Source: Minisyncoccia bacterium (GTDB lineage: Bacteria > Patescibacteriota > Minisyncoccia > Phycocordibacterales > XYD1-FULL-46-19). Taken from it: a stretch of DNA of 47,544 nt. Below are positions 849-23,482 of this stretch, piece after piece. The stretch is taken from positions 1 through 47,544 of the forward strand of contig JBFIHK010000002.1 of assembly GCA_041601795.1 (NCBI GenBank), read 5' to 3'. The notes beneath the pieces are model-generated. The model was not told the origin of the DNA. It searched no databases and saw only the letters and a program-made list of their open reading frames with translations. Numbering within the stretch: position 1 is the first letter of the stretch; the number at the start of each line of letters is the position of its first letter. Both the position numbers and the translations under genes were made by a program.

Positions 849-851
849 GTT

Positions 852-1078
852 GTGCAGGATTCTCGAGCTACACTCGCTATGGTACCCCGCCATGCGTGCA
901 TGGCGGGGTCTTTCTAATTCGTGCAGGATTCTTTCATTACACAAACAGTATACCTTTGCGATTTTCTCTCGGCCAAGCCGCTCGAAAATAACGCAAAGCT
1001 TTTCGAATCCTGACATAACCCAAGCAGTTGGCTTATTCACGGGTCACATATAAATACTTTTCAGTATTTATAATTTTG
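852..1078 (-). repeat. tRNA-Lys-linked trailing element, two stacked modules (proximal 921-1078, distal 852-920)
   Basis: Sense remnants gtgcaggattc at 852-862 and 921-931 equal tRNA gene 1085-1095. Antisense box ttcgaatcctg at 1002-1012 is the reverse complement of 1088-1098. CTGC-loop hairpin at 1015-1036. Perfect 11-bp GC hairpin at 885-908. Confidence 0.7.
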
Positions 1079-1151
1079 TGCCCCGTGCAGGATTCGAACC
1101 TGCGACCGTTCGCTTAAAAGGCGACTGCTCTACCAACTGAGCTAACGGGGC
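1079..1151 (-). tRNA. tRNA-Lys (anticodon UUU)
   Basis: The reverse complement folds as a cloverleaf: acceptor GCCCCGT/ACGGGGC, D-arm TAGCTCAGTTGGTAGAGC, anticodon loop CTTTTAA, T-arm GCAGGTTCGAATCCTGC. No encoded CCA. Confidence 0.9.
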
Positions 1152-1226
1152 TTACAAAAACTGTTTACGGCATTATCTTACCTAAAAAACCTTGTTTTGT
1201 CTACGTTTTTAATTTAGTATAGCGGA

Positions 1227-1700
1227 ATGATTGAGGAACAAAAATACTTAGTTTTAGACAATATTCGTTCTAGTTATAACGTAGGAGCTATTTTTAGGAC
1301 AGCTGATGCTGTGGGGATAAATAAAATATTTTTAACTGGAGTCACTCCTTGTCCGGTTGATAAGTTTAACCGCGTTAGTAGTCGGATTGCTAAATCAGCT
1401 TTGGGGTCAGAACAAACGGTTAGTTGGGAATACAAAAAAAACATTAGTTCTGTTTTAAAAAAATTAGTTGAGTCTAGGGTCCAAATTATAGCTTTAGAAC
1501 AAGCACCTAAATCTGTAAACTATAAAAAAATAAAACTTGCTAAAAATTGGGCCTTAGTTTTAGGCGAAGAAACCAAAGGTTTACCAAGGGCTGTTCTTGG
1601 TAAATGTGATGTGATTGCTGAAATACCAATGAAAGGAAAAAAAGAATCTCTTAACGTATCGGTAGCTACAGGAGTGGCTTTGTTTGAATTTACTAAATAA
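1227..1700 (+). CDS. SpoU/TrmH-family RNA 2'-O-methyltransferase
   Basis: LDNIRSSYNVGAIFRTADAVG and LVLGEETKGL...IPMKGKKESLNVSVATG match SPOUT (SpoU) motifs. Confidence 0.8.
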   Translation: MIEEQKYLVLDNIRSSYNVGAIFRTADAVGINKIFLTGVTPCPVDKFNRVSSRIAKSALGSEQTVSWEYKKNISSVLKKLVESRVQIIALEQAPKSVNYKKIKLAKNWALVLGEETKGLPRAVLGKCDVIAEIPMKGKKESLNVSVATGVALFEFTK

Positions 1701-1706
1701 ACGTTT

Positions 1707-2582
1707 TTACTTTTGACATTTAGGACAAAAGTGAGTGCCTCGACCAGCGTGTTTTATTTTTAAAATTGTAGTGCCACAAGTTTTGCAAGGTTTTTTTTCT
1801 AAGCCATAAACATTTAAATGTTTAACAAAACCTCCAGGGGTGCCAAGGGCGGTTAAATAATTTTTAGCTGAAGTTCCTCTATTTTTAATTGATAGTTTCA
1901 AGACGGTGATAATATTGTTTCTTAGTTTTTCAATTTCTTTTTTGTTTAAAGTGGATACAATTTTGTCTGGTTTTAAACCACTTAAAAAACAAGCTTCATC
2001 AATGTAAATATTACCTAAGCCTGCAATGTGATGTTGGTCAAATAAAGCTTTTTTAATAGACCTTCTAGGAAAGCGCCTAAAAATATTTTCCAGTTTTAGA
2101 GGAGTGAAATCTTTAGTTAAAGGTTCCACGCCATATTTGTTTAAAGTATTTTCTTTTTCAGTGAAACTAACTAGTCTCATCCAACCAAATTTTCTCATGT
2201 CATTAAAATATAAAGTGTCGCCGTTTTTTAAGTCAAAAACAAGACGAGTAAAATTGTTGGGTAAATAGGTGGCCCCATTTTTTTGAGGATGACCACCAAT
2301 AACTAAGGAGCCAGCTTGAGGTTTTAAAATAAGCTGACCTGTCATTTTAAGATGACACAGAAGGTGAAATTCTTTTTCATTTTTATTTAAAGTTAGGTTG
2401 ATTATTTTGGCTCGGCGCGAGACATTTAAAATGGTGGCGTCTTTAGTTTGGTTAATAAAAACTTTAACCTCTAAAGGGGCGACTGTTTTAGGATTTAAAA
2501 CAGTCGTTTTTTTAATAGTTTGTCCAACTAATTTTTTTTGCAAGTCTCGAACAATAGTTTCAACTTCGGGTAATTCAGGCAT
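1707..2582 (-). CDS. mutM: Formamidopyrimidine-DNA glycosylase
   Basis: N-terminal MPELPEVE catalytic motif. C-terminal zinc finger CKTCGT...HFCPKCQ. Confidence 0.92.
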   Translation of the reverse strand: MPELPEVETIVRDLQKKLVGQTIKKTTVLNPKTVAPLEVKVFINQTKDATILNVSRRAKIINLTLNKNEKEFHLLCHLKMTGQLILKPQAGSLVIGGHPQKNGATYLPNNFTRLVFDLKNGDTLYFNDMRKFGWMRLVSFTEKENTLNKYGVEPLTKDFTPLKLENIFRRFPRRSIKKALFDQHHIAGLGNIYIDEACFLSGLKPDKIVSTLNKKEIEKLRNNIITVLKLSIKNRGTSAKNYLTALGTPGGFVKHLNVYGLEKKPCKTCGTTILKIKHAGRGTHFCPKCQK

Positions 2583-2634
2583 ATATTTTATATAACAGAA
2601 AATGACTTTAAAAGCACTTTTTAGTTTTTATGTC

Positions 2635-3927
2635 TTATTCTTTTTTCGTATTGTTGTTTTTTCGTTGGGTCAGAATTTTTTCTAATTCTTCTTCTGCCAC
2701 CTTAGCATCACTCCAAGGCTCTTTGGCACCATTTTGGCGCATAATATAGGGGTCGGTACCCTTACCAGTGATGATAACCACTCCTTTAGAGGTAACTTTT
2801 GTTAAAGCTTCTTTAATGGCTAACCGTCTATCCATTTCGATTGTTTTAGGGGTAGAACTAATACCTTCTGCTATCATGTTTACTATTTGTTTTGGATCTT
2901 CATCATAAGGATCCTCATCGGTTAAAATAATGTGTTGGCAATGTTTGTCGGCCACTTTACCCATAGCAACTCTTTTTTGAGTGTCGCGCCCACCACCAGC
3001 TGATCCTAAGACGCAAACTTTTTTATAGTCTTTATAGAGGGAATATATTTTATCTAAAGAGTCGGCAGTATGAGCATAGTCAACAATTACATCAAAATCT
3101 TGATAAGGGGTTAAATTTTTGTTTTGGGGGTAAATTTTTTCTACGCGTCCAGGAATGCCGTTAAAATTTTCTAAACCTTTTTTAATTGTTGGTAAATCAA
3201 TATCTAAATGCTCAGCTATTTTAATAGCTGATAAGATATTGTACAGATTAAAAATACCAGCTAAATGACTTTGAATTTTTGTATTTTTGTAGGTAAAAAA
3301 TAAACCGTCGATAGTAGAAGTGTAGGGTTCGGCCTCTGTGAGGTGAGTTTGAATAATTTTTTCTAAAGGGGGTAGTTTTAATTTAAGACTTTCTTCGTCG
3401 TCGCCATTGGTAACTAAAATTTTATTTTTTTTAGGAGAATTTTTTAAAGTTTTAACTATTTTTAACTTAGCTTTAGTATATTTTTCATAAGAACCGTGAG
3501 ACTCTATGTGTTCTGGTGAAAGATTGGTGAAGATTAAACCATTTAAATAAATAAATTTATGTCGCCACTGCTTAGTGCCTTCTGAGGTCATTTCGATAAT
3601 GGCACAAGTGGAGCCTTTATGAACGGCTTCGTATAAAAACTTTTGCAAGAAAGCCCGTCCAGGCATTGTCATTTTTAATAAATTTGGTTTAGTGTCAGAA
3701 TTAATTTTAAAACGTAATGTCGAAGCAATGGTAGTTTTGTGACCAGCAGCCTCTAAAATAGAATTCAAAATTTCCACTGTACTAGTTTTGCCTTTAGTAC
3801 CAGTAATACCAATAGTTATTATTTTTTTAGTCGGAAAACGGTAATAAATAGCTCCACCTAAAGCAATTAGAAAATGATAAATAGAGACGATAAAATTAGG
3901 GGTTATTTTTTTTATTTTATTTAGCAT
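2635..3927 (-). CDS. murE: Mur ligase, UDP-N-acetylmuramoyl-tripeptide synthetase (MurE-like)
   Basis: P-loop GITGTKGKTST. C-terminal TDEDPYDEDP sits in the position of the MurE DNPR motif. Adjacent to a FemAB gene. Confidence 0.8.
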   Translation of the reverse strand: MLNKIKKITPNFIVSIYHFLIALGGAIYYRFPTKKIITIGITGTKGKTSTVEILNSILEAAGHKTTIASTLRFKINSDTKPNLLKMTMPGRAFLQKFLYEAVHKGSTCAIIEMTSEGTKQWRHKFIYLNGLIFTNLSPEHIESHGSYEKYTKAKLKIVKTLKNSPKKNKILVTNGDDEESLKLKLPPLEKIIQTHLTEAEPYTSTIDGLFFTYKNTKIQSHLAGIFNLYNILSAIKIAEHLDIDLPTIKKGLENFNGIPGRVEKIYPQNKNLTPYQDFDVIVDYAHTADSLDKIYSLYKDYKKVCVLGSAGGGRDTQKRVAMGKVADKHCQHIILTDEDPYDEDPKQIVNMIAEGISSTPKTIEMDRRLAIKEALTKVTSKGVVIITGKGTDPYIMRQNGAKEPWSDAKVAEEELEKILTQRKNNNTKKE

Positions 3928-3928
3928 A

Positions 3929-4957
3929 TTAAATATTTAATTTTTTTTTAATTATATAAAGATAATACCAAAAAGGTGATATAACCAAATCAAAAGTAGG
4001 GCCAAAATCTTTAATTAAGCCTGTAAACTGTTTTTTAAAATGACTCACATTTTGCCACGATAAATCTGTTCCATGGCTAACACCGCCAAAGCTATAATAT
4101 TTGGCTCCCAAGCGAGCACTTTCTAGAAAACCTATCCAATGAGCCAAATAAGTGGAAAATTGTTCTCTATAAGAACTACTAGAAGCTCCGAAAACAAATA
4201 AAGCTGTCCCACCATAAACTACTATTAAATTAATGGCTAATATTTCTTGTTTAAATTCTGATACAACTAAAAAACCATTCTTTTGATTATTGAGACTATT
4301 AAAAATATGTTGATAGTATTTTTTAGGGTGAAGTTTAAAATTTGCTCGATTAGCTGTTTCTTCCATTAAACGATAAAATTCAGGGAAATACTGACTTAAA
4401 TTATTAGAGATAATTTTAGTGGTGGTGCCTCTTTTTGTGGCCGTTCTAATAGAATAGCGAGTGTTTTTATTGAGTGAATTTAATAATTCCGTTTCAGGTT
4501 TTGATATGTCCACCACCCATTCATATCGAGGTTGGCTTAAAACAGAGTAATAACCTTTTTTAGGGGTGGGGTGAGTTTTTCTTTTAATGTTTCTTAAAGC
4601 CTCAGGAGTAAAGAATTGAGGATTAAAACGAATAAAGGCAATATTGTTTTTTTGACTATATTGTTTAAGGTAAAAAACTAAAGCTTCTACACTTTCTTGG
4701 TTTGTATTTTTTGTTAAAACAATAGGGCCATGGGGAATGAAAGCTTGTTTTTTACCTCCAGCTAGAGGGGTTGTTAAAATTTGTAAAAATATTTGAGGTT
4801 TTGTTTGTTTTTGTAAAATGAGCCTCTCTACTTTTACTCCAGGTCTTTCTTTTTGCCATAAGTTATATAAAAAACTTTGAGTTAGGTGGCCACCGATGGC
4901 GTTTATTGTTTCATCGTACATTGACGAATCTAGGGTAGTGAAAGTGAAATCTTTCAT
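3929..4957 (-). CDS. FemAB-family peptidoglycan interpeptide-bridge aminoacyltransferase
   Basis: 342 aa. Length and pattern (NKNTRYSIRTATKRG, FKLHPKKYY, YGGTALFVFGASS, YYSFGGV) are typical of FemX/FemAB proteins. Translationally coupled to murE. Confidence 0.7.
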   Translation of the reverse strand: MKDFTFTTLDSSMYDETINAIGGHLTQSFLYNLWQKERPGVKVERLILQKQTKPQIFLQILTTPLAGGKKQAFIPHGPIVLTKNTNQESVEALVFYLKQYSQKNNIAFIRFNPQFFTPEALRNIKRKTHPTPKKGYYSVLSQPRYEWVVDISKPETELLNSLNKNTRYSIRTATKRGTTTKIISNNLSQYFPEFYRLMEETANRANFKLHPKKYYQHIFNSLNNQKNGFLVVSEFKQEILAINLIVVYGGTALFVFGASSSSYREQFSTYLAHWIGFLESARLGAKYYSFGGVSHGTDLSWQNVSHFKKQFTGLIKDFGPTFDLVISPFWYYLYIIKKKLNI

Positions 4958-4959
4958 AT

Positions 4960-5532
4960 TTATTTTCGACCTAATTTTTTTATAGCTATTTTTATTTTTT
5001 CGTCGACCGTTGTGTCTTCGCCGGTAATTTGTTTGAAAATATTTCTAATATCAGAAATGTTATAACCAAGGGCGATTAAAGCATCGACAGCGTCATTATC
5101 ATTTTTAGAAATTTTACTTTGGTCATGGGGTAGAGTGCCAATTTTGTCTCTTAATTCTAAAATAATTTTTTCGGCACTTTTACGACCAATACCAGAAACT
5201 TTAGTTAAGTAACTAATGTTTTCCGATAAAATGGCTTGGCGCAGGGTCTCTGGGGGAGCGATAGACAAAATAGACAAGGCACTTTTAGGGCCAATACCAG
5301 AAATATTTACCAGAAGTTTAAAAAATATTAATTCTTCATTTTCTATGAAGCCGTACAAATCTAAAACATCTTCCCTGACTATTAGATGTGTTTTTAATTT
5401 AACTTCATCGCCGATGTTTAAACTAGATAAAGCGTGTTCTGTTAAATAAACAATATAACCAAGATCACTTGTTTTTATTAAAGCGGATCTATGTTGGAGG
5501 TCTATAATTTGTCCCTGGAGATAGCCTATCAT
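4960..5532 (-). CDS. ruvA: Holliday junction DNA helicase subunit RuvA
   Basis: MIGYLQG start and two helix-hairpin-helix motifs (ISGIGPKSA, VSGIGRKSAEKI). Confidence 0.9.
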   Translation of the reverse strand: MIGYLQGQIIDLQHRSALIKTSDLGYIVYLTEHALSSLNIGDEVKLKTHLIVREDVLDLYGFIENEELIFFKLLVNISGIGPKSALSILSIAPPETLRQAILSENISYLTKVSGIGRKSAEKIILELRDKIGTLPHDQSKISKNDNDAVDALIALGYNISDIRNIFKQITGEDTTVDEKIKIAIKKLGRK

Positions 5533-5601
5533 TAATATATATAATACATTTTGCTTTCGCCCCTTGCAATTTAAAGAAATATTATGTAATATTCTCCTCG
5601 T

Positions 5602-5874
5602 ATGCCAATAACTAAATCAGCTAAAAAAGCTTTGCGAGGAAGCGCTAAAAAACGCGTTTTTAATAATACTCGTAAGAAAAACATGAAAGACGCCGTTAAG
5701 AGGATAAAAAAGTCTTTAATGGTTAAAGATGTAGCCACAGCTGAAAGTAAGCTCAGTGAAGCTTATAAAGCCATAGACAAGGCTTTTAAGCGGGGGGTAA
5801 TCAAGAAAAATACAGCTGCTCGAAAAAAATCTCGCTTAACTAAAGCTATTATTAAAACTAAAAAAGCTAAGTAA
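5602..5874 (+). CDS. rpsT: 30S ribosomal protein S20
   Basis: Basic 90-aa protein. MPITKSAKKALR...start is typical of S20. Confidence 0.9.
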   Translation: MPITKSAKKALRGSAKKRVFNNTRKKNMKDAVKRIKKSLMVKDVATAESKLSEAYKAIDKAFKRGVIKKNTAARKKSRLTKAIIKTKKAK

Positions 5875-5891
5875 AAATAAAATTAAGCCTC

Positions 5892-5923
5892 AAAAAAAAC
5901 ACTTCAAGAGAAGTGTTTTTTTT
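5892..5923. terminator. Bidirectional intrinsic terminator (rpsT / tRNA-Arg)
   Basis: A-run, stem cacttc / gaagtg with loop aaga, then T8. Confidence 0.7.
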
Positions 5924-5968
5924 GATCTTATAAATTGAAATTGCTAATTTATTTTTTATCAAAAATTT

Positions 5969-6043
5969 TGGTGCTCTCACCAAGAGTCGAACTTGGATTA
6001 CGGGTTCCGCAAACCCGCGTTCTATCCATTGAACTATGAGAGC
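5969..6043 (-). tRNA. tRNA-Arg (anticodon GCG), CCA encoded
   Basis: Reverse complement GCTCTCA-TA-GTTCAATGGATAGAAC-G-CGGGT-TTGCGGA-ACCCG-TAAT-CCAAG-TTCGACT-CTTGG-TGAGAGC-A-CCA. Confidence 0.85.
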
Positions 6044-6076
6044 TTAAATTTCTTAGGCTAGATTATCATAAAAAAA

Positions 6077-6571
6077 TTAAAAGCCCAACTGCTCTGATAT
6101 TTTATCTACTAGTGATTCTTCAAAGTCTACCTCTGGTATAAAGTCAGCTAAAAAGTCGCGTACCTCTTCAGGGTCAATATGGCTTAGGGGTATGACAATA
6201 TGAGGGAAGATCATACGTCCAGTTTCTACCATTAATTTATAAGGTTTTTCATCGTCTTTAATGGCAAAAGAGTCTATTTCTTTTAAAGGGTATAAATTAT
6301 TTTTTATTTTTATACCTTGAGTGGAGATTGAAAAATTTATTAATTCTGGTTTCCTGTTAACTAAAGCCATGGCTGTACCCATGCCGATTAATAAAATGAG
6401 AGCCAGTAAAAAGTTTTTTAAAATAATAGCCAGTAAAATTCCTCCGGCGGTAACAGCTCCTACAACCCAAAACCAGTCTTGAGTTTTGTCTTCTTGTTGG
6501 GTGTATTCAAAATCTTGCCAGTCTATAGTTTGGCCTCGTCTATTTTTCCTAGGATTTAGAGTAGGGTTCAT
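6077..6571 (-). CDS. Hypothetical membrane protein
   Basis: 164-aa ORF with two adjacent hydrophobic helices (WFWVVGAVTAGGILLAIILKNFLLALILLIGMGTAMAL). No recognisable family. Confidence 0.6.
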   Translation of the reverse strand: MNPTLNPRKNRRGQTIDWQDFEYTQQEDKTQDWFWVVGAVTAGGILLAIILKNFLLALILLIGMGTAMALVNRKPELINFSISTQGIKIKNNLYPLKEIDSFAIKDDEKPYKLMVETGRMIFPHIVIPLSHIDPEEVRDFLADFIPEVDFEESLVDKISEQLGF

Positions 6572-6688
6572 TGTTCATATTGTAACAACGCTCATAGATT
6601 ACTTCAATTTTTTTACACACAAATTAAATAAAATTTATTTTGCCTTTAACATCATTTGTATTAACAGTATAATACTGAAGATACTTTT

Positions 6689-8146: not shown

Positions 8147-8189
8147 GGTTGGTTTACTTGAAAAAAATTTGAGATTTAGGTAATGTTTT

Positions 8190-8405
8190 ACTTGGGTAAG
8201 TAACAACAGTTGTCATGGTGACATCTCTGTTGGTTGCTGGGTAGGCAACCAAATGAGTAGTCGGGTTCGATGCCCGAAACTGGACCGATAAGAGAGAAAT
8301 GGTTGTCTAGAATAAGTGGGAGCCGTTGAGACTTTTTCGCTAGAAAAAGAGGAGGCGTCGTTGGAATACCACTCTCCATTAATCAAATTGAGGTTTGTTA
8401 CCCTT
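8190..8405 (+). ncRNA. Unassigned structured RNA candidate (or long structured 3' UTR of the preceding gene)
   Basis: No credible ORF. Several hairpins: GTCAtggTGAC; GGTTGC-tgggtag-GCAACC; perfect T-arm-like TCGGG-TTCGATG-CCCGA at 8261-8277; CTTTTTC-gcta-GAAAAAG. Immediately followed by an intrinsic terminator. Confidence 0.35.
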
Positions 8406-8407
8406 CT

Positions 8408-8443
8408 GAGCTTGTCACTTTGTGTGGCAAGCTCTTATTTTTT
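8408..8443 (+). terminator. Intrinsic terminator
   Basis: Stem gagcttg...caagctc (8408-8434) followed by ttatttttt. Confidence 0.7.
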
Positions 8444-8451
8444 ATAGGTTT

Positions 8452-8621
8452 AGGGAGGGATTCGGTCACAAATAATTCTCTTGCCGTCGCTCGAGAATTT
8501 CCGCGACCCCGGCTCGGCTATTCACACTGCTGTGTTAATTATGCCTGCGCCTTTCGAATCCCTCACGCGACTGAAGCAGTTCAGTCGCTCCTCTCCTTGT
8601 CAAAATTTTCAATTTTGCCTG
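8452..8621 (-). repeat. tRNA-Ser-linked trailing element
   Basis: Sense remnant 8452-8464 equals tRNA gene 8627-8639 (13 nt). Antisense box 8553-8564 ttcgaatccctc. 9-bp hairpin with CTGC loop at 8567-8588. Confidence 0.7.
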
Positions 8622-8708
8622 CGGAGAGGGAGGGATTCGAACCCTCGGTGCCCTTGCGGACACTCCGGTTTTCAAGACCGGTGCGATCAACCACTCTGCC
8701 ACCTCTCC
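8622..8708 (-). tRNA. tRNA-Ser (anticodon UGA), class II
   Basis: Reverse complement GGAGAGG-TG-GCAGAGTGGTTGATCGC-A-CCGGT-CTTGAAA-ACCGG-(long variable arm)-GAGGGTTCGAATCCCTC-CCTCTCC-G. Confidence 0.9.
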
Positions 8709-8740
8709 AAAAGTAAGCCCTAGGGCTTACTGGTTGTTAT

Positions 8741-9187
8741 TTATTTGTTGTTGTCACCACTATGATCTGTTGTCATAGGGGTGTAGTCTTCAGCTGTTGT
8801 CGGCATTGGATTTGGGTTTGTTGTCGGTACAGTGCTAGCTTCAGATTCTGAAGACATAGTTTCTGGAACGTTTTCTTTGGTGCTGTTTTCTGTTTTTGGA
8901 GCTTTTGATTTAAGACTCTGGGTTTGGGGTGGGGTTTTAGGTTTAGTATCTGCAATAAAAGATCCAGTTGGACGATTTAAGCTTTTGGAAATAAAAAGGA
9001 TATAGATAATTTCTAAAATACCTAAAGTGTTAATCAAGATTAAGGCAATAAACCATAATTTATGATTGTTGCGAGCTGCTTGCCAGAGGGCAATAGCTTT
9101 CCAAACTATAGACCAGACGATAATAAAGATCAGTATCGACCAAAAAATAAAAACGACACTATCAGAAAAATTCAATGTTTGTTCCAT
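8741..9187 (-). CDS. Small membrane protein with Pro/Thr/Ser-rich C-terminal tail
   Basis: Two TM helices (IFWSILIFIIVWSIVW; LWFIALILINTLGILEIIYILF) followed by a low-complexity tail. Confidence 0.6.
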   Translation of the reverse strand: MEQTLNFSDSVVFIFWSILIFIIVWSIVWKAIALWQAARNNHKLWFIALILINTLGILEIIYILFISKSLNRPTGSFIADTKPKTPPQTQSLKSKAPKTENSTKENVPETMSSESEASTVPTTNPNPMPTTAEDYTPMTTDHSGDNNK

Positions 9188-9260
9188 AATTGTTATAGTA
9201 CAATAATATTATTAAAAATCAACCACGACTTAAAAGGTCTATATAGTATATAATAAGAAA

Positions 9261-9656
9261 ATGAAAATTGCAGGCAAAGTTTTGGGTATAGATTTTGGAA
9301 CTAAAAAAATAGGCCTAGCTTTGTCGAATGAGCTTAGAAGTGTGGCTTTTCCTTATGATGTAATACCAGTAAGCAAAGAACTTGTGGAAAAGGTGGTCGA
9401 CATCTGTCGCCGAGAAGAAGTTGAACTAATAGTGGTGGGTGAGTCTAAAAATAATAATGGACTATATAATGAAGTCCATGAACTAGCGGTTAAGTTTATA
9501 GTTGAGTTAAAAAAAGTTTTAGATATTGAAGTTGTTTTTCAGCCAGAAATGTTTTCGACTCAAGAGGCTACAAGAACCGCTCCAAAAGACAAAGACACTG
9601 ATGCTAGAGCGGCAGCTATTATTTTACAAAGTTATTTAGAGAATTATAATTTATAG
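9261..9656 (+). CDS. ruvX: Holliday junction resolvase-like / pre-16S rRNA nuclease YqgF (RuvX)
   Basis: VLGIDFGTKKIGLALSN N-terminal RNase H-fold motif. 131 aa. Confidence 0.85.
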   Translation: MKIAGKVLGIDFGTKKIGLALSNELRSVAFPYDVIPVSKELVEKVVDICRREEVELIVVGESKNNNGLYNEVHELAVKFIVELKKVLDIEVVFQPEMFSTQEATRTAPKDKDTDARAAAIILQSYLENYNL

Positions 9657-9658
9657 TC

Positions 9659-10258
9659 ATGAACTGGCCAAAAAAATTATCTCGTGACTACCTGCACTTA
9701 TGGTTGAAAAATCAAGCTACTAGAAAAGAAGCTTCTTGGGTTTTAGGGGTAATTTCGTTTACTGAAAGCTCTTTTTTTTTAATTCCACCCGACTTTTTCT
9801 TAATTAGTATTTTGTTGGCCGATAATAAACGTTGGTGGCATTATACTTTAATCACCATTGTTGGCTCCGTACTCGGAGGTATTTTTGGCTATTTAATTGG
9901 ATTGCTTTTTTTTGATACAGTGGGAGTTTGGGTTATTGAGACTTATAATCTGACCACTGAAGTTCAATTGGTAGGACAAAAATTTAATGACAATGCTATG
10001 TGGGCTATTTTTGTGTCTGCTTTTACGCCTATTCCATATAAGGTGTTCACCATTTCAGCTGGGTTTTTTAAAGTAAATTTATTTATTTTTGTTTTAATGT
10101 CTTCTTTAGGGCGAGGTTTAAGATTTTTAATCATTGGTTATATTATGCGTTTATATGGTCCGATGGCAGGGAAGTTGATGTATAAATATTTTAATGGCAT
10201 ATCTTTGTTTTTAGCTTTAGTTATTTTAACCTTAGTTTTTTATTCATATATTTTTTAA
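9659..10258 (+). CDS. YqaA/DedA-type (VTT/SNARE-associated domain) membrane protein
   Basis: TESSFFLIPPDFFLISI motif and four or more TM segments. Confidence 0.65.
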   Translation: MNWPKKLSRDYLHLWLKNQATRKEASWVLGVISFTESSFFLIPPDFFLISILLADNKRWWHYTLITIVGSVLGGIFGYLIGLLFFDTVGVWVIETYNLTTEVQLVGQKFNDNAMWAIFVSAFTPIPYKVFTISAGFFKVNLFIFVLMSSLGRGLRFLIIGYIMRLYGPMAGKLMYKYFNGISLFLALVILTLVFYSYIF

Positions 10259-10309
10259 CTTGCTCTAGAGAAAAAATAATAGTAATCTAAAAATTGTAAA
10301 TTAAAGTTT

Positions 10310-10381
10310 GCCCCGGTAGTTCAATGGATAGAACTGCGGACTTCTAAGCCGTTAATGGGGGTTCGATTCCCTCCCGGGGCA
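10310..10381 (+). tRNA. tRNA-Arg (anticodon UCU)
   Basis: GCCCCGG-TA-GTTCAATGGATAGAAC-T-GCGGA-CTTCTAA-GCCGT-TAAT-GGGGG-TTCGATT-CCCTC-CCGGGGC-A. One A.G mismatch closes the anticodon stem. Confidence 0.85.
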
Positions 10382-10543
10382 CAAAGAAAAAAGACGCTAT
10401 CAAGCGTTTTTTTTATTTGTGTTTCGGAGAAACTAAACTGCTTTAGTTTCGTGAGGTAATCGAAAAGGTTCTTCCTTACCGTCTCGCCGAATAGAGCGAG
10501 ACGGTGGAAAACCTGTACTGTTCCTGTAAGGAAAGATTCCCTC
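10382..10543 (+). repeat. tRNA-Arg(UCU)-linked trailing element
   Basis: 9-bp hairpin with CTGC loop at 10429-10450. Antisense box gaggtaatcgaa at 10453-10464 (11/12 to the complement of the tRNA T-arm). Nested hairpin at 10479-10504. Sense remnant gattccctc at 10535-10543. Confidence 0.7.
10386..10414 (+). terminator. Intrinsic terminator directly after tRNA-Arg(UCU)
   Basis: aaaaaagacgct-atca-agcgtttttttt. Confidence 0.55.
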
Positions 10544-10678
10544 TTGGTATTCTAAAACAAAACGTAAGTTTTGGCTGATTATATTTTAGTAGCCCCGGGA
10601 AGGAATCGAATTAGTAAGAAAATTTTATTTAAAACGTTATACAGTATAGTAAATAATTATTACTTAACTATCTTGTAC

Positions 10679-11245
10679 ATGTTAACCAAAATCATTGTTA
10701 TTTTAATTGTTGGTGTAATTGGTGTAGGAGGTTATTTGGTCATTTCTAGTGAGGGTGAAGTTTATGATACCGATTTATCAAACAGTACATCAACTGCAAC
10801 TACAACAACATCTAATATTAGTGAATCAAAAGAAGACAACTTTATTGAGGAAGATTTGTCTATCAAGTGGAAACAAATAGATGCTCCTAATTTTACTTTA
10901 TTTATTCCGACTGATTGGAAATTTAATCAGCTACAAGGTATAGATTCATATTTAGGGGAGTTGGTGGGGCCTGAAGCTAAATTAACTTTTGACTTTGGTT
11001 TATATTCTGATTCACTGGTGGCAGACGACGATCCTAATTATGTGATTACATATGAAAATATAGATGGTTACAAAGCTAAAATAATTAAACCTAAAACAAT
11101 TGGTCTGGGTACAGTTGGTGTTTATTTCGATAATGTTGGTGGAGGTGGCTTTCAAACTACTAAATTACAGATATCTGGCCAAGATTTATCTAAGAAAAAT
11201 CAAGAAATAGCTCTACAAATATTTAGATCTATAGAGTTTAAATAA
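10679..11245 (+). CDS. Hypothetical N-terminally anchored secreted protein
   Basis: The track ORF 10571-11245 starts at TTG inside the tRNA-linked region. The first ATG (10679) gives MLTKIIVILIVGVIGVGGYLV signal anchor, then a Thr/Ser linker. Confidence 0.6.
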   Translation: MLTKIIVILIVGVIGVGGYLVISSEGEVYDTDLSNSTSTATTTTSNISESKEDNFIEEDLSIKWKQIDAPNFTLFIPTDWKFNQLQGIDSYLGELVGPEAKLTFDFGLYSDSLVADDDPNYVITYENIDGYKAKIIKPKTIGLGTVGVYFDNVGGGGFQTTKLQISGQDLSKKNQEIALQIFRSIEFK

Positions 11246-11369
11246 TTAATTGTAAAGAAAGCTTCAGCTTAATATTTTTTAACAGATATTTAATAACAAA
11301 ATCTTTTCTAGTCCCTTAGTGTGTTGCTACAAAATCAACAGCCCCGAAGCTTTTACTGAAACATAAAAA

Positions 11370-11645
11370 CTGAGGGACTCTCGAGCTACACTCACTGGTA
11401 CTTTTCGATTAAATATTCTTAATCAGATATTTAATAACGAAAAGTCTTTCGAGATACCCGTACTTTTTTTGGGACTCGGTCACAACTCTTCTGTTTCGAT
11501 AAATCTACACAACGAAGGTCGCGACCCCGTCTCAGCGACAAGTACTCACTTGGTTCGTCTTGTATACCGCTTCCGACCTTCGAGTCCCTCAGCGCCTACA
11601 AAACAAAAATATTCTAAAGCAATACTTTAGAATCTAATGTTTTTG
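11370..11645 (-). repeat. tRNA-Val-linked trailing elements, stacked modules (proximal 11471-11645, distal 11370-11470; older decayed copy likely 11246-11369)
   Basis: 17-nt antisense box at 11579-11595 is the exact reverse complement of tRNA gene 11649-11665. Sense remnants gggactcg at 11471-11478 and ctgagggactc at 11370-11380. Confidence 0.75.
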
Positions 11646-11719
11646 TGCGCGCTGAGGGACTCGAACCCCCGGCCTACCCGGTGTAAACGGGTTGCTCTAG
11701 CCAACTGAGCTAAGCGCGC
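11646..11719 (-). tRNA. tRNA-Val (anticodon UAC)
   Basis: Reverse complement GCGCGCT-TA-GCTCAGTTGGCTAGAGC-A-ACCCG-TTTACAC-CGGGT-AGGCC-GGGGG-TTCGAGT-CCCTC-AGCGCGC-A. Confidence 0.9.
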
Positions 11720-11758
11720 AATATTGCTACAATACCTTATTTGTATTACTTTATCAAG

Positions 11759-12490
11759 ATGGGTTTTGAACCAAAAATTATATTTGAAGATGAAAATGTT
11801 CTAGTTTTAGACAAGCCAGCGGGCTTGTCTGTTCATGGTGACGGTTTTAAAAAAGAAATTACTTTAGCTGACTGGTTGGTAGGCAGGTGGCCTAGTATTG
11901 TAAATGTAGGGGAATCAACTATTAAAAACGGTCAAGAGATTTTGCGGCCAGGAATAGTTCATCGTTTAGATAGAGATACTAGCGGAGTGATGGTGGTGGC
12001 TAAAAATGAAACAACTTTTAAATATTTAAAAGAGCAATTTAAAAATAGACAAGTTCAAAAAACTTATAGAGCTTTGGTTAAAGGAGTTTTTTCGAAGCCA
12101 GAAGTAGAAAAAATAGTTTATCTACCTATTGGCCGAAGCGATAAAGATCCTAGGAAAAGGGTCGCCAGTCTTAAAGCTGCTGGTAAGTTAAGGTCAGCCG
12201 AAACTAGGTTTAAAGTTTTGGCAACTTCAGGTGAAGGGTATTCTTATATTGAAGCTTATCCGAAGACGGGCCGGACTCATCAAATTAGGGTTCACTTAAA
12301 AGCCATTCAACACCCTATAGTAGGAGATAAGTTGTATGCCGGGGAGTTATTTAATTTATCAGATTTAAATAGACAAGCTCTCCATGCTTATAAATTAACC
12401 CTTTCTTTACCTGGAGGTATAAAAAAAGAGTTCACAGCTCCCATTCCAGCTGATATGGCTTTAGCCCTTGATAAGCTTAAATTATCGTGA
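11759..12490 (+). CDS. rluD: RluA/RluD-family 23S rRNA pseudouridine synthase
   Basis: HRLDRDTSGVMVVAK catalytic motif. Start moved to ATG 11759 (the track start 11741 is TTG, adjacent to tRNA-Val). Confidence 0.85.
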   Translation: MGFEPKIIFEDENVLVLDKPAGLSVHGDGFKKEITLADWLVGRWPSIVNVGESTIKNGQEILRPGIVHRLDRDTSGVMVVAKNETTFKYLKEQFKNRQVQKTYRALVKGVFSKPEVEKIVYLPIGRSDKDPRKRVASLKAAGKLRSAETRFKVLATSGEGYSYIEAYPKTGRTHQIRVHLKAIQHPIVGDKLYAGELFNLSDLNRQALHAYKLTLSLPGGIKKEFTAPIPADMALALDKLKLS

Positions 12491-12506
12491 TAAACTACCT
12501 CTCGTT

Positions 12507-13004
12507 ATGAATACTATGACACTTGCCATCTCACCGGTGGATATCGCTAAAAGAAAAAAAATAGATTTGACCCCAGGTAATACTGTTCGGGTGTTTTTAA
12601 AGATTGAAGAAAAAGGTAAAACTCGATTGCAGATGTTTGAAGGTTTAATCATTTCTCGTAAACACGGCACTGAAGCTGGCGCCACTTTTACTGTCCGTAA
12701 AGTAGCCTCAGGGGTAGGGTTAGAAAAAACTTTTCCTTTATATTCTCCAGTAATTGATAAAATAGAAGTAGTTAAAAAATCTAAAGTTCGTCGATCTAAA
12801 CTTTATTATATTCGTGATAAAGCTGCTAAAGAAATTCGTCGTCGTATGAAGCAAATCATTGGAGGAAAACAAGATGACAACTTAAATGACGAGGAAGAAA
12901 CAGAAGAGGTGGTGGAAGTTTTAGACAGTCCAGATGTTAACCCCGAAGAGGTGGTTGCAACTGAAGCAGAAACACCAGAAACAAAACCAGAAGAAAACAA
13001 ATAA
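12507..13004 (+). CDS. rplS: 50S ribosomal protein L19 with acidic C-terminal extension
   Basis: GNTVRVFLKIEEKGKTRLQMFEGLIISRKHGTEAGATFTVRK...FPLYSPVIDKIEVV is canonical L19. The ATG 12507 start is preferred over the overlapping track start 12468. Confidence 0.9.
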   Translation: MNTMTLAISPVDIAKRKKIDLTPGNTVRVFLKIEEKGKTRLQMFEGLIISRKHGTEAGATFTVRKVASGVGLEKTFPLYSPVIDKIEVVKKSKVRRSKLYYIRDKAAKEIRRRMKQIIGGKQDDNLNDEEETEEVVEVLDSPDVNPEEVVATEAETPETKPEENK

Positions 13005-13014
13005 ATTTAAAAAA

Positions 13015-13042
13015 ACAAACCCTGAATCAGGGTTTGTTTTTT
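13015..13042 (+). terminator. Intrinsic terminator after rplS
   Basis: acaaaccctg-aat-cagggtttgt followed by ttttt. Confidence 0.8.
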
Positions 13043-13077
13043 AAATGACTTTTCTTTACAATTTTAAATATAAAATT

Positions 13078-13161
13078 GCGCGAGTGCTGAAACTGGTAGA
13101 CAGGCACGCTTGAGGGGCGTGTGCTCGTAAGAGCGTGGAGGTTCAAGTCCTCTCTCGCGCA
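13078..13161 (+). tRNA. tRNA-Leu (anticodon GAG), class II
   Basis: GCGCGAG-TG-CTGAAACTGGTAGACAG-G-CACGC-TTGAGGG-GCGTG-(variable arm GCTCgtaaGAGC)-GGAGG-TTCAAGT-CCTCT-CTCGCGC-A. Confidence 0.9.
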
Positions 13162-13304
13162 CAATTGAACAAAGTTTAAAATTGTACGCGAGAGGCGCAT
13201 CTGTTTTTTATAAAATAAAAAACAGGAGCAGGACTTGAAAAGACCCCGCCCTTCTAGAAGGGCGGGGTTGATGTGAGTTGACCCCAAGCCCCCTCGTTAC
13301 GCAC
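13162..13304 (+). repeat. tRNA-Leu-linked trailing element
   Basis: Antisense pieces cgcgagag(g) at 13187-13195 and aggacttgaa at 13230-13239, separated by an AT hairpin. GC hairpin at 13244-13267. TTGACCCC end. Decayed sense remnant aagccccctcgttacgcac at 13286-13304. Confidence 0.65.
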
Positions 13305-13379
13305 CCTTTACTTTTATTTTTAATATGATATAATAAAAATAGTTAGATTCATAAAATACTACCAGAGGAGAATACAGTC

Positions 13380-13586
13380 ATGGCTCGACAGTTTTTCCAA
13401 GTATTTTTTTATGATGAATTAGGACGTTGTTTGTGCCAATGTCCTAAAGTGTGGGGTCTTAATTTAGACCATGCCATTAGGCGTGTTCGAGACAAAAGAC
13501 CAGACCTTGAGGAAACTTATGTTTACGGCAAGAGATTACCCAAAAAATCTCGCACCCAAATGATGGGTGGCAGAGAGATTCATTGA
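13380..13586 (+). CDS. Small hypothetical protein (68 aa, Cys-containing)
   Basis: Strong RBS ggaggag 7 nt upstream of the ATG. A strong terminator follows. No recognisable family. Confidence 0.55.
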   Translation: MARQFFQVFFYDELGRCLCQCPKVWGLNLDHAIRRVRDKRPDLEETYVYGKRLPKKSRTQMMGGREIH

Positions 13587-13600
13587 TAAGTGGATCTCGC

Positions 13601-13634
13601 ACGGGCCCGACTTTTAGTCGGTGCCCGTTTTTTC
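13601..13634 (+). terminator. Intrinsic terminator
   Basis: acgggcccgac-tttta-gtcgg(t)gcccgt followed by tttttt. Confidence 0.8.
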
Positions 13635-13665
13635 TTTTTGTTAAAGATTTTGCTAAAATACTCTG

Positions 13666-14223
13666 ATGGCATTATTTACAGGTAAAGGCGACGGGGGTAC
13701 AACTAAAACTTTCGGCTGTAATCAAAGAGTATCTAAAAGCTCTAACGTGGCTGAAGCACTAGGCACTTTAGATGAGGTGAATTCTTTTTTAGGTGTTTGT
13801 AAGGAAAAAGCTCGAGCGAGTTTTTCTGTACCACCTTACGATATGCCTTTGTCACAATTATTACATCAAACTCAAGGCAATTTGTTTATTGTACAAGCTG
13901 AACTAGCTGGAGCTGAAAAAACAATCACTAAAGTCAAAGTGGTTGAAACTGAAAATATAATCAATGAAGTTGAAAAAATGATGCCACCCATTACTACTTT
14001 TTTTATTTCTGGTGGCACAGAATTAGCGGCTCATTTAGATTTTGCTCGAACGCTGGCCAGAAGAGCTGAGCGTCAGGTGGTGGGAGTTAAAGATGAGGGA
14101 GTACAAAAAATTGGGGCTGACACCCTGGCTTATTTAAACCGTCTATCTAGTTTATTGTACGCCCTGGCTAGACTTACTAACCATTTATCTGGTATAAAGG
14201 AGGAGTCGCCTAGATATAAGTAG
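13666..14223 (+). CDS. PduO-type ATP:cob(I)alamin adenosyltransferase family protein
   Basis: N-terminal TGKGDGGTT motif plus helical-bundle-length protein (185 aa). Confidence 0.8.
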   Translation: MALFTGKGDGGTTKTFGCNQRVSKSSNVAEALGTLDEVNSFLGVCKEKARASFSVPPYDMPLSQLLHQTQGNLFIVQAELAGAEKTITKVKVVETENIINEVEKMMPPITTFFISGGTELAAHLDFARTLARRAERQVVGVKDEGVQKIGADTLAYLNRLSSLLYALARLTNHLSGIKEESPRYK

Positions 14224-14235
14224 GCGATAATAGAT

Positions 14236-14308
14236 GGTGCCTATGGTGTAACGGTTAACACTGAGGTTTGTGGAACCTTCGATTCGGGTTCGATTCCCGA
14301 TAGGCACC
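14236..14308 (+). tRNA. tRNA-His (anticodon GUG) with encoded G-1
   Basis: G(-1)-GTGCCTA...GAGGT-TTGTGGA-ACCTT...CGGGTTCGATTCCCG-TAGGCAC-C. G-1 pairs with C73. Confidence 0.9.
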
Positions 14309-14519
14309 CAAAAATAATAAGTTTAAACTGAAAGTTTGAACGATTGTATTTTTGGTGTTGATCTATCCGGAATCGAAAGACGGAGGCGGTACACAAGACG
14401 AGGAGAAAAACGACGAGTGCTTGTCGCCGAGTCCGGGGAGGAAGCACTTAGTGAACGAAGACCGGAGGGATGAGTGAACTTAGTGACTTGACCCCGATTC
14501 CCGATAGGCACCCAAAAAT
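14309..14519 (+). repeat. tRNA-His-linked trailing element bounded by a perfect 24-nt direct repeat of the tRNA 3' end
   Basis: gattcccgataggcacccaaaaat at 14292-14315 and again at 14496-14519. Antisense box ccggaatcgaa at 14367-14377 (10/11). Confidence 0.8.
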
Positions 14520-14727
14520 TAAAGATAGGCATTTTTACTTATCCACAAGTTGTTGGTTTTAAAAAATATGATATTTGTTAGGCTAATAAGTGAGGTAGGA
14601 TAGTTTGAAAGATTATGCTGTAAGGTTATAATCACTCGTTTTTTAAACGAATCGATAGAACTATTTTACCTCATTAAAGAAACCGGCTTTGAAGCGGGTT
14701 TTTTTAATGTTTGGTATAATAAATATT

Positions 14728-23436: not shown

Positions 23437-23482
23437 CTTGCGATTATATGAAAAATCAGTATAGTAAAACAGTTATAAAAAC

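Follow-up and report, generated by a model that had tools for sequence, protein, structure and literature searches.

Small elements with an antisense T-arm segment behind the tRNA and tmRNA genes of Patescibacteria, a probable family of non-autonomous insertions

The stretch of DNA analysed here (the window: positions 1 to 47,544 of contig JBFIHK010000002.1, assembly GCA_041601795.1, from a Minisyncoccia bacterium of the Patescibacteriota) contains seven tRNA genes, all identified by ARAGORN and Rfam inside its first 14.5 kb, and six of them (Lys, Ser, Arg(UCU), Val, Leu and His) are followed on their 3' side by a short element carrying an antisense copy of the T-arm of the adjacent tRNA, while Arg(GCG) has none. 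The elements insert site-specifically at the 3' ends of tRNA and transfer-messenger RNA (tmRNA) genes, regenerate the gene, stack on its proximal side, have a strand-specific fold and possess no coding capacity. They very probably constitute one mobile, non-autonomous family that is specific to tRNA and tmRNA 3' ends.

tRNA genes of the window and the elements behind them

The sequences downstream of the tRNA genes were laid out in each tRNA's own orientation, all exact matches of at least 9 nt between the tRNAs and the whole 47.5-kb window were collected, and every part was re-extracted. At all six occupied tRNAs the antisense match starts exactly at T54 of the T-loop, 50–68 nt beyond the gene, and these antisense boxes lie where an earlier reading, made from the sequence alone and without database searches (the sequence-only reading), had placed them. 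One or two sense copies per tRNA start at nt 56/57, 147–265 nt downstream; the remnants proposed by that reading were recovered for Lys, Ser, Arg, Val and His, while the one at Leu (13286–13304) is only degenerate. The remaining 9-10-mers common to the tRNAs and the window are randomly scattered, and only the element matches agree in position, orientation and register. The specific interior motifs tested are confined to the elements within the window, while the short end motif T[GT]TGACC on its own recurs by chance. Two-layer arrays are present at Lys and at Val, and at Arg(UCU) an older unit survives as a relic made up of a hairpin and an uninterrupted antisense copy. In the list of features, 'a' denotes the repeated tRNA 3' segment and 't' the hairpin that follows the gene; CM stands for covariance model, and P2 and P3 are helices of a three-way junction.

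852..862, minus: Lys remnant 2, nt 57–67 (11 exact)
863..919, minus: Lys module B, an older stacked copy with decayed box, GC hairpin and end GAGTGTAGCTCGA (CM match 859–918, 19.5 bits, E 0.008)
920..931, minus: Lys remnant 1, tRNA nt 57–68 (12 exact)
932..1001, minus: Lys module A, type 2, P2 and P3 of the three-way junction, ending TGTAATGAAA (CM match 920–1013, 44.5 bits, E 8.5e-10)
1002..1012, minus: Lys antisense box, complement of nt 54–64 (11/11)
1013..1037, minus: Lys unit, conserved 9-bp hairpin with CUGC loop at the 65/66 boundary of the antisense segment (motif, pairing)
1038..1047, minus: Lys unit, antisense of the acceptor 3' strand, N73 and C74, GTGACCCGTG (9/10 match)
1049..1073, minus: Lys unit, AT-rich hairpin t, TTATAAATACT GAAA AGTATTTATA (layout, re-extraction)
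1078..1151, minus: tRNA-Lys(UUU), host gene, nt 57–74 being the proximal copy of 'a' (ARAGORN, Rfam)
5969..6043, minus: tRNA-Arg(GCG), unoccupied comparison site with encoded CCA (the L006 counterpart is occupied, and the displaced remnant there keeps CCA)
8452..8464, minus: Ser remnant, nt 56–68 (13 exact)
8465..8552, minus: Ser module, type 1-like, ending TGTGAC (three-way-junction fold, z -5.5)
8553..8564, minus: Ser antisense box (12/12)
8565..8617, minus: Ser unit, hairpin t 8601–8617, anti-acceptor GGAGAGG 8590–8596 and CUGC-loop hairpin 8565–8589 (re-extraction; the same trailer is displaced downstream of a newer unit in L002)
8621..8708, minus: tRNA-Ser(UGA), host gene (ARAGORN, Rfam)
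10310..10382, plus: tRNA-Arg(UCU), host gene (ARAGORN, Rfam)
10387..10452, plus: Arg unit, terminator-like hairpin t 10387–10414, decayed anti-acceptor 10419–10427 and CUGC-loop hairpin 10428–10452 (orthologous to the L002 trailer)
10453..10464, plus: Arg antisense box (11/12)
10465..10534, plus: Arg module, type 2, ending TGTAAGGAAA (CM match 10453–10546, 34.3 bits, E 6e-7; fold z -5.4)
10535..10543, plus: Arg remnant, nt 57–65 (exact-match list)
10556..10611, plus: relic of an older Arg unit, hairpin t2 and contiguous antisense of nt 54–74, GTAGCCCCGGGAAGGAATCGAA, module lost (matches, re-extraction)
11370..11380, minus: Val remnant 2, nt 57–67 (11 exact)
11381..11461, minus: Val unit B, decayed box 11450–11461 and type-S module (CM match 11369–11461, 70.2 bits, E 6e-17)
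11471..11478, minus: Val remnant 1, CGAGTCCC (layout, re-extraction)
11479..11578, minus: Val module A, type 1, GCGGTATACAAGACGA...GTACTTGTCGC...TGTGAC (conforms to the type-1 consensus three-way junction)
11579..11633, minus: Val unit, hairpin t 11611–11633, T-run and GTAG, contiguous antisense box 11579–11597 (17 exact, 11579–11595)
11645..11719, minus: tRNA-Val(UAC), host gene (ARAGORN, Rfam)
13078..13162, plus: tRNA-Leu(GAG), host gene (ARAGORN, Rfam)
13184..13239, plus: Leu unit, anti-acceptor 13184–13195, AT hairpin 13201–13225 and antisense box 13230–13239 (box 10/10)
13240..13285, plus: Leu module, a short deletion derivative of the L002 tRNA-Leu module, ending GAGTTGACCCC (comparison with L002)
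13286..13304, plus: Leu remnant, degenerate match (layout, re-extraction)
14237..14309, plus: tRNA-His(GUG), host gene (ARAGORN, Rfam)
14321..14377, plus: His unit, hairpin t 14321–14341 and contiguous antisense segment 14353–14377 with the box at its end (box 14367–14377, 10/11)
14378..14494, plus: His module, type 1, ending CTTGACCC (fold z -4.9; conforms to the type-1 consensus)
14495..14519, plus: His remnant, nt 56–73 and AAAAAT, a displaced old 3' end (19 exact plus trailer)

Mechanically called open reading frames (ORFs) of 53–98 aa at 837–1053, 8420–8723, 13027–13287 and 14241–14532 overlap elements and tRNAs and are probably spurious; the gene callers used for relatives annotate similar ORFs, such as two that lie beyond the tRNA-Arg array in L002 (5789–6169, 126 aa, and 6178–6420, 80 aa). 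The region 8225–8290 on the plus strand is a fragment resembling a tRNA 3' half, with an anticodon-arm-like part (GTTGCTGGGTAGGCAAC), a T-arm (TCGGGTTCGATGCCCGA) and then AACTGGACC. It has no ARAGORN or Rfam call, is located in a stretch of about 300 nt (8148–8452) that is missing from L002, and may be an old integration scar.

Anatomy of one unit

Read in the direction of the tRNA, one unit consists of a, t, an antisense segment a', GAAAG, the module and the displaced older 'a'. Segment 'a' is a copy of tRNA nt 57–74/75 that completes the gene, t is a hairpin between the gene and the antisense segment and is often terminator-like, and a' is antisense of nt 54–74. The sequence-only reading had confined the antisense copy mainly to the T-arm; that box stands, but the segment is longer and runs from T54 through C74, including the acceptor 3' strand, N73 and C74. 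It is contiguous in Val and His, while in Lys, Ser and Arg it is split into anti-acceptor and anti-T-arm segments by a 25-nt insert, A-GC-N7-CUGC-N7'-GC-GU, which folds into a conserved hairpin of 9 bp whose loop reads CUGC. Dozens of copies in other genomes have this hairpin precisely at the boundary of acceptor and T-stem, with the complement of nt 66 on one side and that of nt 65 on the other. Together with the flanking A-run and T-run, t joins the tRNA 3' end and the antisense segment into a single long near-perfect palindrome.

The antisense segment is followed by an invariant GAA (the complement of T54–C56), then A/G-G and the module, and the GAA is kept although the remnant contains no TTC. 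The older 'a' lies flush against the module end, which reads ...GAC(C), ...GGGGGA, ...GAAA or ...CTCGA. Units are about 90–250 nt long, with modules down to about 45 nt and a folded core of 60–130 nt, and the subtypes have almost no invariant core in common beyond GAAAG. Modules are GC-rich islands in a genome of 35% GC. Many units contain no terminator between the tRNA and a', and most have a terminator-like hairpin before the module. Type-1 units contain a conserved GTAG directly 5' of the antisense arm; their t hairpins end in TGCGAAAGCA, and a conserved TTTTGTAG is located just before the arm.

Distribution and association with tRNA and tmRNA genes

A type-S pattern was run on the GTDB representative genomes and a type-1 pattern (the His/Val subtype) on metagenome contigs, and the further copies that the sequence-only reading had expected were found by the hundreds. 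Type S comprises 94 loci, all in Patescibacteria (Vogel-, Nomura-, Taylor- and Paceibacteria, metagenome-assembled genomes (MAGs) labelled Saccharibacteria, and Peribacteria), and one MAG has at least 8 matches. A same-strand tRNA, belonging to one of 31 anticodons, is present within 600 nt upstream of 75 of the 94 loci, at 37–104 nt in 64 of them, while the other 19 include contig edges, tmRNA 3' ends and one tRNA with a group I intron. Type 1 was found on at least 120 metagenome contigs from many environments; among the 123 matches listed, 91 lie behind a tRNA or tmRNA gene and 13 at the edge of a contig, and the other 19, where resolved, are distal array members, follow a group-I-intron tRNA, or have a prophage or defence island in between. 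In both subtypes about 75–80% of the copies are therefore directly 3' of a same-strand tRNA or tmRNA, the location that the sequence-only reading had proposed to test, the remainder being edges, array members, split loci and some tRNA-less units with no assigned cause (L245, L255, L308, L236/L295 and similar). An interpretation of the tRNA-less units as autonomous elements was rejected, since the resolved ones are distal array members or were split off by a prophage or defence island and carry no element-specific gene.

The type-S covariance model also detects Val B (70 bits), Lys A (44.5), Arg (34.3) and Lys B (19.5) in the window, always beside a tRNA and on its strand. As it thereby recognizes type-2 and short modules, types S, 2 and the short modules appear from sequence similarity to be one family. 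A neighbouring protein puts the window close to Candidatus Vogelbacteria, and syntenic contigs of four relatives contain the same kind of trailers behind the same tRNAs. Rfam 15 gave no match to a module in the window or in 20 related loci, the only hits (tRNA, tmRNA and group I intron) lying outside the modules, and at E <= 5 over window positions 700–14800 nothing relevant was found.

Several of these loci contain other insertions. L315 (13.4 kb) has a prophage with a terminase, a diversity-generating retroelement (DGR; bAvd and reverse transcriptase), a cyclic-oligonucleotide-based antiphage signalling system (CBASS; SMODS and SAVED) and a methylase upstream of an old unit, and L293 has a STAND-NTPase island upstream of an old unit. 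In both, the insert occupies the usual position of the tRNA, no tRNA was found on the contig, and the direct repeat GTCACTTTTGTCACTTTT is located just upstream of the unit. In L206 (4811–5056) and L325 (2657–2932), a group I intron (Rfam Intron_gpI) immediately precedes the T-arm of a stable-RNA gene; these genes are apparently tRNAs missed by ARAGORN and also bear the 3' element.

Agreement of the antisense segment with its own tRNA

Among 64 distinct type-S copies the box agrees with its own tRNA at a mean of 11.1 of 12 positions and with other tRNAs at 8.3, the share of pairs with at least 11 matches being 53/64 for the own tRNA and 4.6% for others; the corresponding means for 64 distinct type-1 copies are 10.7 and 8.1, with 3.4% of the other pairs reaching 11. 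The fit is far above the level given by the near-palindrome of the T-arm alone, the explanation that the sequence-only reading had named as the one to be excluded. Its description of homologous elements with a target-matched part and shared interiors is borne out.

Where the remnant and the live tRNA differ, a' agrees with the live tRNA in 29 cases and with the remnant in 3. The number of a' mismatches per 9 nt is 1.41 beside an intact remnant and 0.80 beside a decayed one (pooled p = 0.004; type 1 alone p = 0.03, type S not significant). No wobble selection was detected in the a':tRNA pairing (G:T 30, A:C 21, transversions 77). Related modules at five different tRNAs have a lineage-specific G opposite A58. 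From these comparisons the antisense segment is kept in register with the functional gene, or brought so, but is not freshly copied from the target at each event. Fold-back recopying at every insertion was rejected, as it is contradicted by the hairpin fixed at 65/66, by the G opposite A58 at five tRNAs and by the imperfect a' of young units.

Insertion and turnover at orthologous loci

The relative L002 shares about 88–91% DNA identity with the window. Its tRNA-Ser is followed by one extra unit of a different subtype, bounded by the 20-nt repeat CGAATCCCTCCCTCTCCGCA (the tRNA 3' end), and directly downstream of it are the old 3' end and the old trailer of the window type, an arrangement that reads as a clean insertion of one unit. 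The Arg(GCG) site is empty in the window and L002 and filled in L006, where the insertion replaced the encoded CCA end and the displaced remnant ends in CCA; empty and filled states of orthologous sites, which the sequence-only reading had proposed to compare, are therefore both represented. Orthologous tRNAs bear differing module types or none (Val in L009 has no unit), and within one MAG a module subtype recurs at different tRNAs, whereas the corresponding tRNA of a sister MAG bears another subtype. At Arg(UCU), the t, anti-acceptor and hairpin of the window and L002 are alike (1 mismatch in about 70 nt), whereas the modules between the conserved P1 arms, the outer helix of the junction, differ (type 2 versus type S). 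Arrays of identical units in tandem are common, as are stacks of decaying ones. A new unit enters directly beside the gene; earlier units and their remnants are thereby moved away from it, and in this distal position they decay or are lost by deletion. Strain polymorphism gave no information, as the extra contigs of relatives are 99.9–100% identical.

Insertion always occurs after GTTC (G53–C56), and an 18–19-nt repeat, either element-borne or a target duplication, flanks the unit, the antisense span of nt 54–74 being this repeat plus TTC. Since the repeat of nt 57–74/75 bounds the unit, its insertion boundary has two equivalent readings, namely a-t-a'-module inserted between C56 and R57, or t-a'-module inserted with an 18–19-nt target duplication. 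The suggestion of the sequence-only reading that these are non-autonomous insertions restoring the tRNA 3' end, with stacked copies and decaying remnants, agrees with the L002 tRNA-Ser unit, the turnover of module types and the tandem arrays.

The same observations bear on the possibility that the units are not mobile but are host-selected modules of the tRNA 3' trailer (terminator, 3'-processing signal or decoy RNA) spread by local duplication and gene conversion, with the antisense segment regulating the folding or processing of the tRNA 3' half. The very high occupancy in streamlined genomes (5–6 of 7 tRNAs in the window), an a' that stays matched to the live tRNA as remnants decay, the terminator-like t, and a tRNA-like layout (acceptor-like helix, side hairpin and T-like helix) that could recruit RNase P, RNase Z or the CCA-adding enzyme would all suit such a role. 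Against it, L002 has the new unit, orthologous loci differ in the presence and type of units, and stacks of decaying copies and displaced old 3' ends are typical marks of insertion; some tRNAs have no unit (Arg(GCG) in the window, Val in L009), and a long perfect hairpin sequestering the tRNA 3' half would hinder tRNA folding. We consider a non-mobile origin highly improbable.

A larger kind of duplication was also observed. L009 contains duplicated tRNA 3' halves at 3560–3652 (tRNA-Ser) and 5684–5760 (tRNA-Arg(UCU)), which start from the variable arm or anticodon loop, have no antisense box, resemble the scars left by classical integrases and are separate from the element family.

A three-way junction selected on one strand

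The module, the antisense T-part and the downstream remnant fold into a three-way junction, in which P1 is formed by the antisense segment and the remnant, P2 is a long two-part hairpin, and P3 is a short hairpin that in many cases has a GUA loop and whose 3' strand directly adjoins the remnant. The fold z-scores lie between -2.5 and -8.5, and RNAalifold gives the same junction for types S and 1. The 'conserved 3' end' motifs singled out by the sequence-only reading are merely the 3' strands of P3, the last helix, in different module subtypes. Compensatory double changes are present in 16 of 25 consensus pairs of type S (37 sequences) and compensatory changes in 19 of 31 pairs of type 1 (24 sequences including His and Val A of the window), and the pair formed by the nucleotide after GAAAG varies among A:U (14), G:C (6), C:G (3) and U:A (1). 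Covariation in P1 is expected by construction, because both of its strands are tRNA-derived; P2, P3 and the CUGC hairpin are independent evidence for the structure. The tips of P2 in many type-S copies (for example L155, L176, L198, L200 and L225) read UGAAUGAG...GCGAAAUGA, with tandem G-A pairs resembling a kink-turn (k-turn) or loop E.

The CUGC hairpin (25 distinct arms) and the P3 stems contain 15 G:T pairs and no A:C pair, so that only the tRNA-sense strand is under selection for the fold. To judge from this pairing asymmetry, the selected form appears to be RNA or top-strand single-stranded DNA (ssDNA), not a duplex site; structure on one strand favours single-stranded RNA or ssDNA over a purely double-stranded attachment site.

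This asymmetry bears directly on an explanation by double-stranded DNA, in which the units are bare attP mini-elements or scars (150–250 bp) of tyrosine integrases of the T-loop class, either mobilized by resident prophages and islands or left by their deletion. According to Williams (2002), the direct repeat from the T-loop to the tRNA 3' end is reportedly the classical signature of tRNA-targeting integrases. That repeat is present here, the unit size is attP-like, a prophage and a defence island occupy the same sites in L315 and L293, and the relatives have the larger tRNA-half duplications (L009 Ser and Arg). Duplex arm sites would, however, give neither the compensatory stem changes nor the 15:0 ratio; one family serves more than 30 tRNAs and tmRNA, unlike single-tRNA integrases; no integrase gene adjoins any of about 220 copies; and attP and attB would have only nt 57–60 of the 7-bp T-loop overlap region in common. 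Viral contigs of IMG/VR contain no match to three specific module patterns, and a loose CUGC-hairpin pattern gave only chance matches without the hairpin, on which ground a phage origin was rejected as well. The integrase explanation is accordingly improbable.

Features typical of RNA are also found: t has GNRA and UUCG loops, P2 contains tandem G-A pairs like those of a k-turn, and the layout is tRNA-like. The main rival is an RNA-level, intron-like element with a spare 3' exon, in which the tRNA and the unit would be co-transcribed and a' would act as an internal guide. Its GAA would pair with the end of the 5' exon (T54–C56) and the rest alternately with its own nt 57–74 (P1-like) or with the remnant (P10-like), while the three-way junction would be a small catalytic or protein-recruiting core, and the unit would spread by inserting itself in reverse into tRNA transcripts or into the DNA of tRNA genes and then being reverse transcribed. 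Such a scheme is consistent with an a' that is a contiguous complement of the junction 54–56|57–74 and has two mutually exclusive partners, with a GAA that is invariant even beside remnants that have no TTC, with the module 3' end stacking directly on P1, with the many units that have no terminator ahead of a', with the strand-specific wobble pairs and the GNRA and UUCG loops, and with the GC-rich modules. Reverse transcriptases are present in these communities, e.g. that of the L315 prophage, and the site is intron-prone, as group I introns occupy tmRNA T-loops (PMC11915505).

Against it stand the lack of a match to any Rfam ribozyme or intron model even at E <= 5, modules as short as about 45 nt with almost nothing invariant beyond GAAAG and no recognizable catalytic core, the C56 before the junction and the module end in C or A, which misfit the group I rule (U at -1, terminal G), remnants often too decayed to yield a functional spliced tRNA, and the terminator-like hairpin ahead of the module in most units. 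We regard the RNA-level element as unlikely; the integrase and host-trailer explanations are less likely than it.

Enzyme search, surrounding genes and CCA ends

No ORF is located inside the units, and no recombinase, transposase, reverse transcriptase or HUH protein was found among the scanned window ORFs of at least 100 aa, in agreement with the sequence-only reading, which had noticed neither integrase nor transposase. The scanned ORFs are all housekeeping genes, including holA-like, SpoU methylase, Fpg, Mur ligase, FemAB, RuvA, PBP, aminoacyl-tRNA synthetases, thymidylate and folate enzymes, RecO, RecA, FtsK and others. Autonomous, ORF-bearing copies were sought as distant remnants of 198 tRNAs in 108 loci, and were rejected as the sole far match was a second tRNA-Ser gene.

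Small GIY-YIG-only ORFs of 80–83 aa are apparently mobile in these genomes and are candidates for a helper nuclease. One is located between nusG and rplK in L002 (18895–19146) and is not present at the window position 23436–23482, one adjoins tRNA-Ser in L009 (3777–4019), and another is fused to a PduO-type adenosyltransferase (protein P0008). The window also encodes, at 31093–34542 on the plus strand, an isoleucyl-tRNA synthetase with a His_Phos_1 domain inserted between parts of the catalytic domain (about aa 504–669).

The sequence-only reading had pointed out that the only tRNA free of an element is also the only one with an encoded CCA. This is correct for the window, but N73-CA(A) follows 76 of 95 element-bearing and 52 of 69 element-free tRNA genes in related genomes, amounting to 128 of 164 distinct tRNA genes of these Patescibacteria, with CCA encoded in only 11. 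As N73-CA(A) is usual with or without a unit, the CCA link is a coincidence of the window.

Proposed mechanism of insertion

The unit may move as a single-stranded intermediate of tRNA sense, in which a, t and a' would fold into a long hairpin and rebuild the duplex target of T-loop and 3' end beside the three-way junction. A strand-transfer enzyme encoded elsewhere, either a recombinase that works on folded single strands or a nuclease of the HUH type, would then exchange strands between C56 and R57, after GTTC; equivalently, t-a'-module would be inserted with an 18–19-nt target duplication and a' as the guide. Because the unit brings its own nt 57–74, each insertion would regenerate an intact tRNA and the target, allowing repeated insertion and the near-saturation of tRNA genes. 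The logic is borrowed from the CTX-phage attP(+), integron attC and IS608/REP systems. A single-stranded hairpin with strand transfer is offered as a tentative mechanism. The overall account, a blend of the mobile family and this mechanism, is the best explanation that we can give, and its chances are about even.

Several points weigh against this account. No enzyme for it was found in the window. GC skew is positive across the whole window and the occupied tRNAs are three per strand, so that elements are present on leading and lagging strands; the use of both replication orientations argues against a lagging-strand-restricted mechanism of the IS200/IS605 style, and the 18-nt repeat likewise speaks against an enzyme of that type. 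RNA and ssDNA are both compatible with the sequence; the t loops, the G-A pairs of P2 and the tRNA-like layout point to RNA, yet insertion must end in DNA. The difference confined to the module at Arg(UCU) indicates that modules are also swapped alone, by gene conversion. The fewer a' mismatches beside decayed remnants suggest that matching may improve after insertion, in which case a' is no strict guide, while the persisting G opposite A58 indicates that a' is not simply recopied from the target each time. Finally, modules of one subtype occur at different tRNAs of a genome, each with a matching a', a retargeting that the account leaves without explanation.

A more general formulation is a nucleic-acid-guided element, in which a structured RNA or folded ssDNA with a programmable 21-nt complement would insert at C56|R57 of any tRNA or tmRNA gene, a spare 3' end would keep the gene working, and either a catalytic three-way-junction core or a guide-dependent strand transferase would do the chemistry. 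This is possible, though we rate it on the unlikely side.

If the account is true, small parasites or symbionts reside at the majority of tRNA genes across much of the candidate phyla radiation (CPR); annotation pipelines and RNA libraries do not recognize them, and they add 1–2% to very small genomes. The elements can mislead the calling of tRNA 3' ends, terminators and ORFs, and they mark sites that are also used by prophages and defence islands. Their design is compact and apparently retargetable to more than 30 genes, comprising a target-complementary guide, a regenerated target, a spare gene end and a folded core; the underlying enzyme or ribozyme could reveal new guide-directed insertion chemistry and could explain spread without harm to essential single-copy genes. 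Should the guided-element formulation be true, such an element would amount to a 'harmless intron', or a guide-directed module for insertion, that could saturate the tRNA genes in streamlined CPR genomes.

Comparison with known systems

The general kind of element, non-autonomous and site-specific with restoration of the tRNA 3' end, is known. A full-text search of the literature found no description of such elements and, as with the Rfam searches, agrees with the sequence-only reading, which had recognized no described family; the combination of a pan-tRNA range, a 21-nt split antisense segment, a covarying three-way junction, a size of about 100–250 nt and near-saturation of CPR tRNA genes apparently has no described counterpart.

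Some classes were rejected on structural grounds. The units are not miniature inverted-repeat transposable elements, as the inverted repeats formed by a' and the remnant are target-derived and differ for each tRNA, and no short duplication is present. A tRNA-primed retroelement (of the primer-binding-site type, or a retrozyme) does not fit, since a' complements nt 54–74 and is then followed by genomic trailer, not CCA. The hammerhead-like GAAA...GUA|C contains, by inspection, no CUGANGA strand between P3 and P1.

Group I introns occur in tRNA anticodon loops and in the tmRNA T-loop, where several subsites are used (PMC11915505). The units likewise occupy T-loop subsites of a tRNA-like gene and have a guide that complements both sides of the insertion point in the manner of P1/P10, a likeness of logic only, and group I introns co-occur in these genomes (L206 and L325). 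The units themselves are not group I introns, as they have no P3–P9 core, their modules comprise only two hairpins, and Intron_gpI gives no hit on them though it finds the introns of L206 and L325; the junction follows C56, the rule of a U at -1 paired with G and a 3'-terminal G is broken, and the host tRNA is complete without splicing.

IS91-family elements insert directly 3' of GTTC without a classical short duplication and use a single-stranded intermediate, which resembles the situation here. They differ in having a Y2 transposase and ori and ter ends, both absent from the units, which are far smaller and use only the GTTC of T-loops.

IS200/IS605 elements, palindrome-associated transposable elements (PATEs) and the repetitive extragenic palindromes (REPs) and bacterial interspersed mosaic elements (BIMEs) of REP-associated tyrosine transposases (RAYTs) are, like the units, small, protein-less, multicopy and provided with hairpins folded on one strand. 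Sub-terminal one-strand hairpins, as in IS200/IS605-type elements, are represented here by covarying hairpins near both ends (G:T only, no A:C). In IS608 the left cleavage site lies outside the element and is recognized by pairing with element DNA, and REPs contain GTAG; the counterparts here are the short conserved GTTC, after which the units are inserted, and the GTAG directly 5' of the antisense arm in type-1 units. The units differ in that no TnpA or RAYT gene was found, none being encoded in the window, in having no lagging-strand orientation bias, in a pairing segment of 21 nt rather than 4, in the duplication of 18–19 nt of target-identical sequence, and in their strict location at tRNA and tmRNA 3' ends.

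Integron attC sites, the CTX-phage attP(+) and arrays of integrative mobile elements exploiting Xer (IMEX) likewise contain an inverted repeat that folds strand-specifically into a duplex recombination site, with structure conserved over sequence, extra-helical features, a regenerated target and arrays in which the newest copy is proximal. The units possess no R/L boxes (GTTRRRY), no dif-like site and no cargo, and one arm of their hairpin is the host tRNA 3' end. Membership among integron attC sites was rejected, as the T-loop reads GTTCRAN, the palindrome stops at T54 and there is no inverse core.

Genomic islands inserted at tRNA genes by tyrosine integrases, together with the related cis-mobilizable elements (CIMEs), share with the units the insertion in the T-loop, the direct repeat of the tRNA 3' end that restores the gene, tandem accretion and non-autonomous derivatives. 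The units differ from them in a size of 100–250 nt instead of kilobases, in carrying no integrase, in serving more than 30 tRNAs with one family, and in possessing an antisense copy of the target together with a covarying single-strand fold.

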